A stretch of 31,046 bases of DNA from a virus (lineage: Duplodnaviria > Caudoviricetes), in the IMG/VR virus record IMGVR_UViG_3300032227_000542, positions 1 through 31,046 of that record; one strand, given 5' to 3'. The translations under genes and the position numbers were made by a program. This document shows positions 3,629 through 30,060 of the stretch, in pieces. Below the pieces are notes generated by a model. The model did not search any database and was not told where the DNA came from. It worked only from the letters and a program-made list of their open reading frames with translations. Numbering within the stretch: position 1 is the first letter of the stretch; each line of letters starts with the position of its first letter.

Positions 3629-4996
3629 ATGAATTATTTAGAGTTTTTAGAATCTAAGCGCCATAGCCAAAGCGACTACGGGATTGAGCCCGTTTTTTAT
3701 CCTGAGCGGCTTTTCGATTATCAACGCCACGTAGCCAACTACGCCATTAAAAAAGGTCGGTGCGCTGTATTTTTAGATACGGGCCTGGGTAAAACGATAA
3801 TAGAATTAACCATAGCCGTAAACTATTTACAAAGCACCAATAAACCCGTCTTAATTATTACGCCTCTGGCGGTCGCTTTTCAATTCATTAAGGAGGCCGA
3901 GAAATTTGGTATCGATGATATCGAATACAGTAAAAACGGTAAGTTTAAAAGTAAAATAGTTATTTGTAACTATGAGCGGTTGGATCATTTCGACCCCTCA
4001 CATTTTGAATGCGTTATTTTAGATGAGTCAAGTATCCTCAAGAATTTCGACGGGGCTATTAAATCTAATATAACCTCGTTTCTTAAAAAAGTACGTTACC
4101 GTTTCCTGTTTACCGCTACGCCCAGCCCTAACGATTTTATCGAATTGGGAACGTCATCCGAGGCGCTTGGATATTTAGGTTATACCGATATGCTTACAAA
4201 GTTTTTTAAGAATAACGGTAACTCTATTGACATTAGGCACGCGGGCTCAGAATGGTATTTAAAAGCTCATGCCGAGCGTGATTTTTGGCGCTGGGTTGCG
4301 AGTTGGTCGATATCAGTTAAAAAACCTTCCGATATTGGTTTTAGTGATGATTTACATGTACTGCCGGAATTAATAGAGCTCGAAACGGTAGTAAATAATA
4401 AAAACCCCCTGGCGATTAACGGTCAAACATCGATGTTTAATTTTCCCGCCGTTAATTTCTTCGAGATTAAAAGCGAAGTCCGATCCACCATTACCGAACG
4501 TTGTGAAATGGCGGCTCAGAAATCAGCTAATAACGACACGTCGGTTTATTGGGTTAATCTAAATGACGAGGCCAAATTAATAGGCCAATTGGATAAAAGC
4601 GCCATAGAGATTAGCGGAAATATGAGCATAGATAAAAAGGAGGAAATCCTTTTAAATTTCGCCAGCGGTGAAATAAAAAAGCTCATAACGAAAACATCTA
4701 TTACGGCGTTTGGCCTGAATTGGCAACACTGTAATCATACGGTTTATTTTCCAACTTATTCCTATGAGCAGTATTACCAAGCTATTCGCCGCTTTTGGCG
4801 CTTTGGTCAGACGAAACCCGTTTACGTGGATCTAATCTTGAGCGACGGCCAAACGCGCATTATGCAAAGCCTAAATGTAAAAAAGGATAAAGCTATCCGA
4901 ATGTTTAAAGAGCTAACCTCCCAAACCAATAGCGACTTTAAAATTTCGACAAAAGAATTCAATAAAAAAATAACCCTTCCAAACTTTTTAAAATGA
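3629..4996 (+). CDS. SNF2-like superfamily 2 helicase/ATPase
   Basis: DTGLGKT, ILDESS, TATP, FGLNWQ and QAIRRFWRFGQ motifs. Confidence 0.9.
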   Translation: MNYLEFLESKRHSQSDYGIEPVFYPERLFDYQRHVANYAIKKGRCAVFLDTGLGKTIIELTIAVNYLQSTNKPVLIITPLAVAFQFIKEAEKFGIDDIEYSKNGKFKSKIVICNYERLDHFDPSHFECVILDESSILKNFDGAIKSNITSFLKKVRYRFLFTATPSPNDFIELGTSSEALGYLGYTDMLTKFFKNNGNSIDIRHAGSEWYLKAHAERDFWRWVASWSISVKKPSDIGFSDDLHVLPELIELETVVNNKNPLAINGQTSMFNFPAVNFFEIKSEVRSTITERCEMAAQKSANNDTSVYWVNLNDEAKLIGQLDKSAIEISGNMSIDKKEEILLNFASGEIKKLITKTSITAFGLNWQHCNHTVYFPTYSYEQYYQAIRRFWRFGQTKPVYVDLILSDGQTRIMQSLNVKKDKAIRMFKELTSQTNSDFKISTKEFNKKITLPNFLK

Positions 4997-5976
4997 TTAA
5001 GGACCAGTTAATTTCCGAAAACTTCGCGATTTATAACAGCGATTGTATGTATGTTTTACCGAGCCTAAAAAACGATAGCATAGACCTGGCGGTTTATAGT
5101 CCCCCGTTTGCTGGGTTATATAATTACAGTAGTTCCGAAAATGATTTTAGCAACTGTGAAAATAAAGATCAATTTTTAGATCAGTATGAATTCTTAGTAG
5201 CCGAAATGGCGCGCGTTACTAAGCCAGGTCGAATAAACGCCGTCCATTGTACCGACGTATTCGATAACCGTAGTTTTTTATGGGACTTTCCCCACGAGAT
5301 TATCAGAATTCACGAAAAGTACGGGTTCCATTATCGCAACCGTATAACCATTTGGAAAGAACCCCTCAAAGTTCGTATGCGTACTATGGTGCAAAGCCTT
5401 ATGCACAAATTTATAGTTGAGGATACGACGCGCTGTTTTACCGCTATGCCCGATTACGTTTTAATCTTTACCAAAACAGGCGAAAATGAGACTCCCGTAA
5501 CCCATCCTTTCGGGTTGACTGAATACTTTGGCGCGACTCCTTTTTTAAAAGAGCATGAGGAAACCTACGGCAATTATGCGGACTTTAAAAAGAAATGGAA
5601 AAACTTTACGGGCGATCCTCGGGAGAATAAATTAAGTCATATTACCTGGCAGCGATACGCATCGAGCGTTTGGGATGATATCAGAATCGACAACGTTTTA
5701 CCGTTTAAAGATTCCAAAGAAGACGACGACGAAAAGCATGTCCACCCTTTACAGTTGGACGTCATAGACCGAATAGTTGAATTATATTCTAATCTTGGCG
5801 AAACGGTTTTTACTCCATTTATGGGGGTTGGATCTGAGGTTTATAGCCCCGTTTCGTTGGGACGTAAAGGAATCGGAATAGAGCTCAAAGATTCCTATTT
5901 TAAACAGTCGGTTTTAAATATGAAGGAAGCCGAAAAGCGATTTAATAAAGTAGAACAATTAACAATAAATGTATAA
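4993..5976 (+). CDS. DNA methyltransferase, N4-cytosine/N6-adenine, beta-class motif order
   Basis: N-terminal SPPF catalytic motif, KHVHP, C-terminal FTPFMGVGS SAM-binding motif and GIEL; ATGA overlap with the helicase. Confidence 0.92.
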   Translation: MIKDQLISENFAIYNSDCMYVLPSLKNDSIDLAVYSPPFAGLYNYSSSENDFSNCENKDQFLDQYEFLVAEMARVTKPGRINAVHCTDVFDNRSFLWDFPHEIIRIHEKYGFHYRNRITIWKEPLKVRMRTMVQSLMHKFIVEDTTRCFTAMPDYVLIFTKTGENETPVTHPFGLTEYFGATPFLKEHEETYGNYADFKKKWKNFTGDPRENKLSHITWQRYASSVWDDIRIDNVLPFKDSKEDDDEKHVHPLQLDVIDRIVELYSNLGETVFTPFMGVGSEVYSPVSLGRKGIGIELKDSYFKQSVLNMKEAEKRFNKVEQLTINV

Positions 5977-5994: not shown

Positions 5995-6420
5995 ATGAAT
6001 AAGAGAAGCCCTTTTAACTACGTCGCTCGCATTGAGCGCGTCCAAAAATGGATAACGGCCAACCCAGGTCTTCACGTTAACGAGATGCTCGACGAAATGA
6101 GCGACACCCCGCGCGGGACTTTGAGCGCGTTACTTAGTCACATGCTCGGCGCTGGGCACATATTACGGCACGAAAGAGGTTTTTACACCTTACCCGAATT
6201 AGTGGCGAGCCCTCGTTCGGTAGCGTATGATATCAAAAAGCTAAAAAAATCGCCCAATATTTTCAGAACGATAAAAAACCGTACCGCCAAGCCAAAGGGA
6301 GTACTCCCCGAAATGCCCCTAAATGCCCCTGAGCCGAATGAAATCGAGGCCGCCATTAACCTGTTGAAAAGTCACGGTTATAAAGTTTTCAAACCGACGA
6401 CGGAATTTAAAGAGATTTAG
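5995..6420 (+). CDS. Putative winged-helix DNA-binding protein
   Basis: PGLHVNEMLDEM...RGTLSALLSHMLGAGHILRHERGFYTL has a wHTH-like helix-helix-hairpin pattern. Confidence 0.6.
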   Translation: MNKRSPFNYVARIERVQKWITANPGLHVNEMLDEMSDTPRGTLSALLSHMLGAGHILRHERGFYTLPELVASPRSVAYDIKKLKKSPNIFRTIKNRTAKPKGVLPEMPLNAPEPNEIEAAINLLKSHGYKVFKPTTEFKEI

Positions 6421-6429
6421 TATTATTGC

Positions 6430-6528
6430 GACGGACTCTCATAATGAAATTTAAAAAATCCCCCTTCCGTTTATTGCCGTCAGCCGAAAGGCTATGGGAG
6501 TCCCTTTAAACGTTGGGGGGTATTTTTT
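6430..6528 (+). ncRNA. Candidate structured cis-regulatory leader (pseudoknot with GAAA tetraloop)
   Basis: 6433-6443 pairs with 6493-6503; 6453-6473 pairs with 6507-6528; AGCC-GAAA-GGCT hairpin at 6482-6493. Confidence 0.65.
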
Positions 6529-6531
6529 GAA

Positions 6532-7194
6532 ATGAAAAAATCTTTTTTACTTTACATCGACGCCCTCGAGGTTCTGAATGTTTTAACCGATGAACAAGCG
6601 GGGCAATTATTTAAAGCCATTCGAGCTTATCAGTTAGGAATTGAGTTCGAATCCGAGCCCATTATTCAAATCGCCCTGGCTTCATTCATTCAGAATTTTA
6701 AACGCGATAATGAAAAGTATTTAATGATAGTCGAACGTAACCGCTCGAATGGGTTAAAAAATAGCAAGTTAAAATATGAAACCCAAAAAACCCAAAGGAA
6801 CCCAGTGGGTTCCAATGGCATCCACTCGGGGCCACTCGTAACCGATAATGGTAATGATAATGGTAATGTAAAGGGTAATGGTAATGTTACTCAAGAAAAA
6901 AAGTCTATAAAAAAAGAATTTATCCCGCCAACCCTTGAGGAGGTAAAAACTTGGTTTATCGAAAACGGTTCCACCGCTCAGGCTGGCGCGAAGGCATGGC
7001 AATATTACACCGATGGGGATTGGGTTGACTCCAAAGGAACCCCCGTTAAGAATTGGCGCCAAAAAATGCGCGGTGGGCGCTGGCTTGAGGATAAACCAAA
7101 CGCTCAAACCAAACCCGAGGAGGTTTATCGGTCGCTCGATCGTGAATTAATGCCAGGCTCAGACATCCTTTACAAATACAATCCCCACGGATAA
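6532..7194 (+). CDS. Phage replication initiator / replisome organiser (DUF6291-like N-terminus)
   Basis: KKSFLLY...LTDEQAGQLFKAI N-terminus, low-complexity DNGN linker, FIPPTLEEV...KNWR C-terminus; directly upstream of dnaB. Confidence 0.8.
   Translation: MKKSFLLYIDALEVLNVLTDEQAGQLFKAIRAYQLGIEFESEPIIQIALASFIQNFKRDNEKYLMIVERNRSNGLKNSKLKYETQKTQRNPVGSNGIHSGPLVTDNGNDNGNVKGNGNVTQEKKSIKKEFIPPTLEEVKTWFIENGSTAQAGAKAWQYYTDGDWVDSKGTPVKNWRQKMRGGRWLEDKPNAQTKPEEVYRSLDRELMPGSDILYKYNPHG
6780..6886 (+). repeat. Iteron-like repeats, putative replication origin inside the initiator gene
   Basis: AACCCA x3, palindrome GGAACCCA-G-TGGGTTCC (6797-6813), CCACTCG x2, multiple TAATG repeats. Confidence 0.5.
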
Positions 7195-7209: not shown

Positions 7210-8544
7210 ATGTTAACACCGCCCAACGATACTGAACTCGAAAAAATAGCCTTAGGAGCCATTTTACTCGATTTTAACGCACTCAAACGCGTTGAGGGTA
7301 TCCTAACGCCTGAAAAGTTTTTTGACCCGCGTAATGGGCTTATTTTCGATGCAATCCAAAAACTCAAAAGTGAAAATTTACCAATTGACATTTTAACCGT
7401 TACTCAAACGCTCAGAAAGTCGAAACAATTGAGCGCGGCGGGGGGGCCCATTTACCTATCGGAACTAACTACCCGCGTAAGTTCTACGGCCAACCTCGAG
7501 ACGTGGGCGCTGCAAATGGTGGAAATGTACCTAAAAAGGGAACTCGCTAAAATGGCGGCGCGGTTAGCTGAGGAGGCGTTATCGCCTGAGCATGACCCTT
7601 TCGACCTTTATAACAGCTATTCCATCCAATTAACCGACCTCATTAAATCCAACCTCAAAGGCGAGACCTCGCATATTTCACAAATTACCCCCGAAACGAT
7701 GCAAAGTATTGAGGAACGTGAGCGCCACGGCCTGAGCGGAATACCGACGGGAATTAGGACAGTTGACAACATTCTCGGAGGCCACCAAAAAGGGGACCTC
7801 ATTTATATTGCGGCCCGCCCAGGCATGGGGAAAACCGCCCTCGCGTTAAGTGTGGCGCTAAACATGGCTCAAAGCGGTTACCCCGTGGCGTTCTTTTCAC
7901 TTGAAATGTCACGGGCTCAGTTAGTTTTTAGGCTGGCGTCCATCCTTTCGGGAATAAACGCCGAGAAGCTCGCGAAATATACCCTCAATACCGAGGATAA
8001 AAAAACCTATTACCAAACCGTCGATCGTTTAAACGCCCTCCCGATATACATCGACGATCGCCCAGGCCTTTCGATACTCGATTTAAAAACCCGCGTTAGA
8101 ACTTTGGCTGAGCGTTCAAACGTAAAGGCGGCCTTTATTGATTACGTCCAACTACTGAGCGCGGGTAATAAAAAGAATTTCGGGAGCCGTGAGCAAGAAA
8201 TAAGCACAATATCGAGAGGCCTCAAGTTAATCGCAAAAGAAAATGCCATCCCCGTAATCGCATTAAGCCAGCTTAGCCGAGCCGTAGAAGCCCGCCAGGA
8301 TAAAAGGCCCCTCCTTTCGGACCTGAGGGATTCGGGAAGCCTTGAACAGGACGCCGACGTTGTCGCTTTTCTTTACCGCGCTGGCTATTACGATACCAAC
8401 TCACCAACTAACGGGGCCGAGTTCATAATAGCAAAGCATCGAAACGGGCGAACGGGGATGTTAAGCGTCAATTTTACCCCCGAAACGATGCACTACACCG
8501 ACATTCAAAACAAAACAATAATTAACGAATCATGGGAGCTATGA
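7210..8544 (+). CDS. dnaB: Replicative DNA helicase
   Basis: AARPGMGKT, FSLEM, IDYVQL, LSQLSR, DLRDSGSLEQDAD and IAKHRNG. Confidence 0.97.
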   Translation: MLTPPNDTELEKIALGAILLDFNALKRVEGILTPEKFFDPRNGLIFDAIQKLKSENLPIDILTVTQTLRKSKQLSAAGGPIYLSELTTRVSSTANLETWALQMVEMYLKRELAKMAARLAEEALSPEHDPFDLYNSYSIQLTDLIKSNLKGETSHISQITPETMQSIEERERHGLSGIPTGIRTVDNILGGHQKGDLIYIAARPGMGKTALALSVALNMAQSGYPVAFFSLEMSRAQLVFRLASILSGINAEKLAKYTLNTEDKKTYYQTVDRLNALPIYIDDRPGLSILDLKTRVRTLAERSNVKAAFIDYVQLLSAGNKKNFGSREQEISTISRGLKLIAKENAIPVIALSQLSRAVEARQDKRPLLSDLRDSGSLEQDADVVAFLYRAGYYDTNSPTNGAEFIIAKHRNGRTGMLSVNFTPETMHYTDIQNKTIINESWEL

Positions 8545-29069: not shown

Positions 29070-29531
29070 CTAATCGTCTAATTCGCCCTCGCTTATTTCG
29101 TTTTTTAGCCAGCTAATAATATCCGAGCCTCGGCATGAAACGCAACCGACGCGGCTCCCCGTCATCAGGTAAACCCATTCTCCGAGCTCCTTAACTGTTT
29201 GGCCTGTGATTACGCCCTGAGTCGGTAGGCCCGAAATGAAGGTCCTTAAAAGTTCCGTTTCCTCATCCGACAGGCGATAGCGCCCCCATTTATTAATCGG
29301 GCATCGGTATAACGAATATTTCGTTTTACGCGGCATATAACAGCCACACAGGCGCGTTTTACGTCGGTAGTGGGTTATTTTGTTGTTTTCCTGCGCCTCG
29401 GCTAAATCCTCGGGGCTGAGCTTGTTTCCTATTATGAGGGTTCCGCAACTGTGGGTTAACGGTCGGAAGTGCTTACAGGCCGTGCACGTCGCTAAACGTT
29501 GGGCCCGAATTGCTGGGGGTACGGTGAACAT
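29070..29531 (-). CDS. Cys-rich putative metal-binding protein
   Basis: RLATCTAC, LCGCYM, CPINKW and CVSC. Confidence 0.7.
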   Translation of the reverse strand: MFTVPPAIRAQRLATCTACKHFRPLTHSCGTLIIGNKLSPEDLAEAQENNKITHYRRKTRLCGCYMPRKTKYSLYRCPINKWGRYRLSDEETELLRTFISGLPTQGVITGQTVKELGEWVYLMTGSRVGCVSCRGSDIISWLKNEISEGELDD

Positions 29532-30024
29532 TTTTCCTAATTCGTGTTAATGCGTTTTCGACTAATTTATAAAGGGTCTTAATGGGGATTCCTGTTTTGG
29601 CGCTGGCGTCCTTATAACTAAAATCGGGGAGGGCGTATAACCTCAAAACGACGGCGTCCATTTGGGGCATGAGTGAAATATAGGCGTCGACGTACTCGTT
29701 ATTTAACCGCGATCCAAGCCACGGGGCCAATGGCTCCTCGAGATGCTTAACGCTATTTTCGTCCCAATTCCTGAGGAACTTACTAAATTTCACATGATAA
29801 CGGCTCGAGCGGTCGATAGCCATTAAAAACAAAGCGCGGTTAACGTAAAATTCGAGGGTTCCTTCATTCGCCAGGCGCTCGGCCTTTTCGCGTTGGTTTT
29901 CGAGTATCTTTAAAAGGGTTTCCGATAACAGGTCGTCGCCGCGGTGGGGGTCGCTCATTAATCCCCTTGCATATCTGAGCCATTTGGGATATAATCGAGC
30001 CGTTTCGTTTTCCAAAGTTTTCAC
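29473..30024 (-). CDS. ECF-like RNA polymerase sigma-70 factor (regions 2 and 4)
   Basis: LYPKWLRYARGL...DDLLSETLLKIL (region 2) and VLRLY...FSYKDASAKTGIPIKTLYKLV (region 4 HTH); start uncertain (GTG 30024 chosen, track gives 30051). Confidence 0.85.
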   Translation of the reverse strand: MKTLENETARLYPKWLRYARGLMSDPHRGDDLLSETLLKILENQREKAERLANEGTLEFYVNRALFLMAIDRSSRYHVKFSKFLRNWDENSVKHLEEPLAPWLGSRLNNEYVDAYISLMPQMDAVVLRLYALPDFSYKDASAKTGIPIKTLYKLVENALTRIRKNVHRTPSNSGPTFSDVHGL

Positions 30025-30029
30025 CCCGT

Positions 30030-30060
30030 TTTGAATGTAGCAAAAAAACAACTATCTTTG
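30030..30060 (+). promoter_or_regulatory. Bacteroidota primary-sigma promoter, divergent from the sigma gene
   Basis: TTTG (30030-30033), 19-nt spacer, TATCTTTG (30053-30060); spacer nearly identical to that of the 1329 promoter. Confidence 0.8.

Follow-up and report, generated by a model that had tools for sequence, protein, structure and literature searches.

The window analysed here (the whole stretch of 31,046 nucleotides) is the record of a 31-kb tailed phage, 96% complete. The structured leader that concerns us occupies the gap between an ORF at 5995-6420, on one side, and the gene of a DUF6291 protein followed by that of DnaB, on the other. The ORF at 5995-6420 (141 amino acids) has no Pfam or PHROG match, its last base directly precedes the -7 box, and its C-terminal end is common to many relatives. 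The features of the locus are the following:

6421..6428, plus strand: predicted Bacteroidota sigma-A -7 box at -12 to -5, TAnnATTG variant of TAnnTTTG, placed by its spacing to P1
6433..6443, plus strand: 5' strand of helix P1 (the "key"), covarying with 6493-6503; G6433 is the predicted transcription start
6444..6509, plus strand: putative upstream ORF (uORF) of 21 codons (family mode 13), starting directly behind P1; conserved AUG and open frame
6453..6476, plus strand: 5' arm of the long stem P2, by fold and covariation, ending with a tandem U-U and the closing G6476
6477..6481, plus strand: loop strand L2, facing the P1 docking strand; its first C is invariant in the protein-selected alignment
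6482..6493, plus strand: cap hairpin P3, with a covarying stem and a free loop
6493..6503, plus strand: 3' strand of P1 (the "lock"), by covariation, in the internal loop
6504..6528, plus strand: 3' arm of P2, a G-run and a U-run, terminator-like by its U counts and covering the initiator start region
6532..7194, plus strand: DUF6291 protein (Pfam PF19808), likely replication initiator
7210..8544, plus strand: DnaB replicative helicase (Pfam DnaB and DnaB_C), next gene of the operon

The DUF6291 protein is likely a replication initiator, judging from the position of its gene and from a common C-terminal domain: it shares its C-terminal part (E = 8e-15) with the HTH_36, or O-like, initiator found behind the same type of leader, and that HTH_36 protein matches several replication-initiation PHROGs. 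A fold search with a model of the DUF6291 N-terminal part gave no match. Of the 111 named phage records in which a relative of the DUF6291 protein occurs, 93 are Flavobacterium phages, which, together with the promoter type, points to a Bacteroidota host. No integrase was found in five near-complete relatives or among the 30-31 window ORFs that were scanned, and no repressor exceeded the cut-off in the five records checked; prophage immunity is thus an unlikely role.

Elsewhere in the window, positions 6780-6910, within the initiator-like gene, hold a near-palindrome (6792-6818), short repeats of the AATGGT type (6838-6889) and an A-rich run, possibly an origin of the lambda-O type; the repeats double as codons of an Asn-Gly/Asp repeat. 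Promoter-like boxes at 1335-1361 and 30034-30060, TATATTTG and TATCTTTG, share a near-identical upstream stretch, ATGTAGCAAAAAA.CAAC, perhaps an operator or an extended promoter; the box at 30034-30060 is divergent from a phage sigma-factor gene (29473-30051). At 3629-5976, an SNF2-like helicase and a DNA methylase are two separate ORFs; in relatives L425, L436, L480 and L694 they form a single ORF of 739-751 amino acids (with both Pfam domains in L480), and this fused ORF comes with a leader of its own, a second copy whose key differs.

A preliminary description of the locus had proposed a pseudoknotted, switchable RNA leader. All its elements are in place: the long stem (6453-6473 with 6507-6528), GACGG at 6430, CCGUC at 6477, the box TATTATTG at 6421 and the ATG at 6532. 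So is the helix that ties the 5' end to the loop, P1, in which GGACUCUCAUA (6433-6443) pairs with UAUGGGAGUCC (6493-6503) over 11 base pairs, one of them G-U. The duplex is worth -16.0 kcal/mol in the window, against -15.5 +/- 1.4 in the family; the fold of the window leader has z = -3.4, equalled by 0 of 200 shuffles, and the plus strand folds better than the opposite one (-34.6 vs -27.0). Rfam models run on the window and 31 further loci returned one tRNA only and no match to the leader, which the preliminary description could not assign to a known family. The leader defines an RNA family absent from Rfam; its predicted fold is one long rod whose interior contains a docking loop.

To collect further leaders, a search with the DUF6291 protein fetched 80 viral loci, and a model built from their leaders detects the leader in 58 of them. 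Pattern scans of viral and metagenome contigs, together with a profile search, anchored 292 of 297 hits among the matches listed. At least 169 distinct leaders were collected from phage contigs; removing three that were mis-anchored and two that had no junction anchor leaves the analysis set of 164. The sequences are related, so that counts overstate the number of independent events. A loose pattern scan, which proved to be nearly all noise, gave a single clear match among 100 of its 120 loci and was set aside. A genome scan with the initiator alignment found eight distant loci, in which the profile search found no leader; a search with model R1 had no match in 151 genomes of the phylum to which a Robiginitalea genome belongs, in a run with no positive control, and its best score was 24.5 bits in the two regions of cultured Flavobacterium phages; blastn with two leader sequences matched no named phage.

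No description of the leader motif was found in the literature searched, and the term "DUF6291" is absent from it. The consulted portions of PMC2864571, PMC5737381, PMC2988022 and bioRxiv 10.64898/2026.09.22.753630 do not treat the motif. According to the consulted part of PMC10690425, a mining of IMG/VR yielded 8,495 anonymous candidates; no match to the motif was found in that part or in the supplement files searched, and the leader may be, unnamed, among these candidates.

An initiator-type gene comes first behind the leader in 95 of the 164 cases and later in 24; it was not found in 10 cases that offer 1.5 kb of sequence or more, and 35 contigs were too short. First genes include DUF6291, DUF1376-like, HTH_36 and other initiator-like genes, small ORFs, methylases, and HNH or GIY-YIG endonucleases; the leader is thus kept before several different initiator families. 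In other lineages (L460, L473, L486, L468, L450, L431, L559), it stands before free-standing endonuclease genes, identified as HNH or GIY-YIG by Pfam in L473, L486 and L468. Since no initiator was found near these genes, the leader may travel with homing endonucleases, or silence them.

Covariation among homologous leaders had been named as the check that could refute the pairing of the 5' end with the loop; it turns out to be far above chance. In 41 distinct protein-found leaders, 95% of the cells of P1 pair, with double changes in 6 of 10 pairs, and in 73 more diverse leaders 94% of the cells pair. P2 covaries too in the 41 leaders, and the stem of P3 has 98% of its cells paired over three pairs, each with double changes. 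Over all 19 counted pairs, 92.7% of the cells of the 41 leaders are paired, against 68.2% after shuffling (0/500) and 30-52% after sliding. Pairs 1-5 of P1 are Watson-Crick in 164/164 anchored leaders, and wobbles occur only further out. Because anchoring favoured good P1 helices, an unbiased figure was taken from a pattern that holds only the junction and the 3' G/U run, leaving out promoter, P1 and AUG: among its 127 matches listed, some of which are the same site in overlapping loci, 124 are not cut by a contig end, and 115 of these have at least 8 contiguous pairs in P1.

The other two structural proposals fared less well. GACGG and CCGUC, offered as an alternative pairing, are present as letters, but they pair at chance level (44.3% vs 42.3%, 67/500 shuffles), and three of the five bases of GACGG lie upstream of the predicted +1. 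The GAAA tetraloop is present here and is not conserved: it is replaced by GUCA in L002, GUAA in L001 and AUUC in many others. What is retained is a switchable leader before a likely initiator; the switching helix proposed for it is refuted.

The promoter box keeps a strict distance to the helix: TAnnWTTG lies exactly 12 bases before the P1 partner in 111 of the 124 unbiased matches, with a fixed spacing of 4 nt between the -7 box and the G of P1. Since the flavobacterial sigma-A box is at -12 to -5, according to the excerpted text of PMC9723704, P1 would start at the predicted +1. A TTTG at -40..-29, absent in this window, is found in 87 of 161 family members, against 6 in a control window.

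Directly behind P1 comes a conserved start codon: AUGAAA in 57 of 58 protein-selected leaders, and an AUG in 112 of 115 leaders from the unbiased pattern. The frame it opens is kept free of stops up to the loop. Among 95 distinct variants, only 2 have a stop before the loop in this frame, where shuffles would give 41, and the other frames have 49 and 31; the corresponding counts are 1 against 16 and 13 for 31 representatives below 80% identity, and 1 against 10 and 13 for 21 protein-selected variants. Within the loop, stops are enriched (59/95, against 33 and 24 in the other frames). The peptide, 10-33 amino acids long, varies in sequence and is not conserved. In the set of 164, the uORF ends in the loop or the docking strand in 120 cases, abuts the main start in 12, is fused in frame with the main gene in 8 and runs into it out of frame in 11. 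The selected feature is thus, on the evidence of the reading frames, likely the passage of a ribosome through the 5' arm of P2. In L064:762-883 and L559:3676-3796 the upstream AUG is missing and replaced by AUA or an A-run; these may be near-cognate starts or decayed copies.

At the other end of the leader, at least 5 U are found in the 8 nt past the last G-C pair in 132/164 leaders. In the 10 nt that precede the ATG, 6 T or more are found in 82% of 77 first genes and in 5% of 308 later genes, a count in which one search pattern required three T at that place. For this phylum, the consulted portion of PMC6847099 reports A-rich starts, unlike the T-rich starts behind the leader, and a host lineage without Shine-Dalgarno sequences.

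The P1 helix, so well conserved as a pairing, is hypervariable in its letters: there are 54 different 8-mers among the 164 leaders. In disjoint pairs of leaders picked by flank likeness only, P1 diverges by 0.42, 0.48 and 0.39 (about 36, 27 and 10 pairs), against 0.19, 0.21 and 0.07 for P2 and 0.05-0.11 for the flanks: P1 outpaces both although every change needs a second one 60 bases away. The alleles are orthogonal, with -14.7 kcal/mol for a key and its own lock and -5.4 across alleles, and their stability is kept in a narrow range (sd 1.78 vs 3.14, 0/300 permutations). In seven records with two copies of the leader (three, plus 4/49 in a further set), the keys differ every time, which is not significant given the diversity of alleles. 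Recombination between leaders could account for such fast change.

Three covarying helices, the spacing of the promoter box, a selected open frame, the U-run and a hypervariable key are the observations to be explained. We propose, with a probability of roughly 0.48, that the leader attenuates the replication operon in a ribosome-coupled manner, and that the short RNA it yields likely doubles as an allele-specific repressor in trans. Two features absent from the preliminary description, the conserved uORF and the hypervariability of P1, carry this mechanism, in which the transcription start, termination, translation, polarity and action in trans are all read from sequence. Host sigma-A would start the RNA at G6433. 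In the ON state, a ribosome would load on the upstream AUG at +12 and cross the 5' arm of P2 while the polymerase makes the 3' arm; with the uORF translated, P2 could not close and the initiator start would stay open. In the OFF state, P1 would mask the 10-11 bases directly before the upstream AUG, so that no ribosome could load; P2 would close, transcription would end at the U-run, after about 96 nt, and in any read-through RNA the closed P2 would bury the main start region. Once accumulated, the short RNA would expose its loop for pairing with newly made transcripts whose 5' end is free and carries the same key. The outcome would be negative feedback on initiator synthesis, and also the silencing of co-infecting phages of the same allele, hence a selection for new keys.

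Some observations bear on the details of this attenuator. With about 27 nt, the loop of P2 is rather long for intrinsic termination; the U-run has, besides, an A-run as pairing partner and may do no more than block translation. A second target downstream was looked for in 111 loci: 65 matches against 48 expected, scattered and with no positional peak. With no second target and no integrase, the role would be feedback and exclusion of co-infecting phages, and not prophage immunity. On the minus strand, 28 scattered boxes in 160 leaders, for this promoter type only, have no common position; without a conserved counter-promoter, the suggestion of a classical antisense target is not supported. The idea of a control of initiator dose keeps its likely initiator downstream, but must be widened, as the leader heads an operon and not one gene.

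The alternative that survives best, which we still consider unlikely, is an attenuator working in cis only, through kinetic competition: loading of the ribosome has to precede synthesis of the loop strand, the output is tied to the translation capacity of the host, and the diversity of alleles is neutral reshuffling. P1 is part of the predicted nascent minimum-energy fold in 156/164 leaders, so that any capture in trans must compete with the cis helix; the narrow stability of P1 suits a tuned race, and neither a second target nor an integrase was found. However, a helix with only a structural role should change more slowly than its neighbours, and P1 evolves more quickly than P2, the spacer and the flanks, with 0/164 non-Watson-Crick intermediates at its pairs 1-5.

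The geometry of the rod bears on another alternative, distinctly less probable, in which the polarity is opposite, as in IncI repZ: P1 in cis would be the ON state, straining or preventing the closure of the lower part of P2, and uORF ribosomes or a trans RNA would remove P1 and turn the operon off. P1 joins the closing G-C pair of P2 with no linker. By a rough span estimate, a P1 formed in cis as the coaxial continuation of a completely closed P2 is unreachable in 120/164 leaders; the span needed is 99 A and the reach 76 A on average. Once the A-U base of P2 opens, it is reachable in 146/164. A negative correlation between the lengths of linker and stem stemmed from mis-folded outliers and was disregarded. 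Holding P1 and the full P2 together in cis would thus be hard; moreover, the uORF mostly stops in the loop and could free the 5' arm before the U-run is made, and activation by a pseudoknot is known for repZ (excerpt of PMC8053102). On the other hand, P1 and P2 have no common bases and a side-by-side fold needs only about 43 A, and the frame kept open across the arm is simpler to explain if translation opens P2. The estimate fits the trans-acting attenuator as well, since a P1 that cannot be reached in cis may leave the loop of the terminated RNA free. With either polarity, the trans RNA would repress.

Around P1, the junction is nearly constant: the closing pair of P2 is G-C in 163/164 leaders and A-U in 1/164, a figure partly built into the search patterns, P3 abuts P1 with a gap of 0-1 nt in 148/164, and L2, which opens with CC, has 5-6 nt in 144/164. 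Such a small invariant core (G1-C, G-C, tandem U-U, CC) with constant loop lengths could be the binding site of a ligand that stabilises P1, either a metabolite or a protein of phage or host. We regard this riboswitch or protein-binding leader as improbable: it has no Rfam match, it leaves the hypervariable helix unexplained, and the invariance is in part a product of the patterns; the product of the first gene is not a common ligand, since first genes are unrelated (initiators, HNH, GIY-YIG, methylases). Least credible of all is a non-regulatory structure, either a single-stranded DNA fold at an origin, as adjacency to replication genes would have it, or a self-cleaving ribozyme, as a topology that we take to recall HDV-like ribozymes loosely would have it: the element begins at the predicted +1, contains a selected uORF, folds better as the plus strand, has a free P3 loop and no linker for a catalytic strand, and also stands before endonuclease genes far from any initiator.

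Returning to the ribosome-coupled attenuator with its trans-acting product, a broader proposal may be built on it, more speculative and less probable than the mechanism itself: non-temperate Bacteroidota phages would practise a form of RNA incompatibility, in which the short leader captures the free 5' ends of nascent transcripts with the same 10-nt key and blocks the replication operon of a rival, leading to an arms race between dozens of orthogonal keys, with a kissing-loop analogue in cultured Flavobacterium phages. The leader adds an undescribed and well-covarying RNA family, at likely replication genes, to a phylum devoid of Shine-Dalgarno sequences where little is known of RNA control. 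If the trans step is true, phages that have neither integrase nor repressor possess a plasmid-like incompatibility coded in RNA, and this would account for the competition between relatives that co-infect. The 54 natural pairs of keys and locks, energy-matched and largely orthogonal, would be ready-made switches for the genetics of Bacteroidota.

In its proposed working, the leader resembles phage P4 CI, the IsrK RNA of Gifsy-1 and the repY-repZ system of IncI plasmids, but it fails the defining features of each. P4 CI, with seqA and seqC, is also a leader RNA of a replication operon; it can pair with the 5' part of the transcript it derives from, and its likely output is premature termination (consulted part of PMC4825925). 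RNAs of the P4 CI and C4 kind are freed by processing and bring about termination in trans. The likeness extends to an upstream target in the same leader, complementary to the loop, which the covariation of P1 provides. Contrary to P4 CI, the leader has no second target downstream comparable to seqC, its phages have no integrase (0/5 near-complete relatives), and its target is the predicted 5' end itself, directly before the upstream AUG; it has no Rfam match to the related C4 of P1/P7 (RF01695) or to C4-like models. IsrK is a short terminated RNA that acts on its own long transcript and controls an upstream ORF with a non-conserved peptide (same part of PMC4825925), as the short form of our leader would; IsrK, however, is an activator, its pairing with orf45 spans about 30 nt and the coupling relies on an overlapping AUGA, whereas our uORF is contained in the structure and adjoins the main start in just 12/164 leaders.

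In the IncI/IncB system, repY-repZ (repB-repA) with Inc/RNAI, the leader ORF ends at or overlaps the rep start, whereas the uORF of our leaders seldom abuts the main start and mostly stops in the loop or docking strand. The common points are a leader peptide, a long-range pseudoknot and a variable RNA code before an initiator, as described in the excerpted texts of PMC8053102 and PMC10724649; here, the conserved AUG and the selected open frame make a putative translated leader ORF. The loop of our leaders pairs with the 5' end and not with a segment near the rep start, they belong to phages and not to plasmids, and their host lineage lacks Shine-Dalgarno sequences (PMC6847099, consulted portion). 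The plasmid systems also make a counter-transcribed antisense RNA, for which our leaders have no conserved counter-promoter of the type scanned.

Other systems are further away. As in attenuators of the trp type, a short ORF crosses one arm of a U-tailed stem, but the leader has no run of regulatory codons and no conserved peptide, and its control is apparently at the initiation of the uORF. The riboswitches of the SAM-II type have an H-type junction and a long last loop; the leader has no Rfam match and its P1-P2 linker is missing. HDV-like and theta ribozymes have a conserved L3, a P1.1 and a catalytic C strand, whereas the P3 loop of the leader varies freely and P1 runs straight into P2. 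The hairpins of T4 homing endonucleases also bury a start region in a stem, and some of our leaders precede HNH or GIY-YIG genes; in T4, a promoter within the stem relieves the hairpin, and no pseudoknot or uORF is described in the consulted part of PMC2988022, while the predicted promoter of our leader precedes the whole element.

A further comparison comes from cultured Flavobacterium phages. This exact leader was not found in the two regions scanned with model R1, but upstream of their initiator-primase operon lies a TAnnTTTG box and then a hairpin at the 5' end; 8 bases of its loop pair with those of the loop in a U-tailed stem, and compensatory changes are seen between tooticki6-1, mumin6-1 and morran9-1 (3 of 46 matching records compared). 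This second class of leaders, in which the box precedes a 5' hairpin that is joined, loop to loop, over 7-8 bases to a long U-tailed stem, was seen at L695:2120-2240 (MN812240, tooticki6-1), L697 and L698, L695:1086-1186 and L077:2851-3003; it also occurs before a NUMOD4 endonuclease and, in L077, before a DUF6291 gene, where it has no Rfam match. Yet another structured leader precedes the DUF6291 gene in L072 (2890-3003, z = -2.75, no Rfam match), with a loop that looks complementary to the stretch just 3' of the stem. By analogy, the leader of the cultured Flavobacterium phages offers a counterpart in which the proposed action in trans can be tested.
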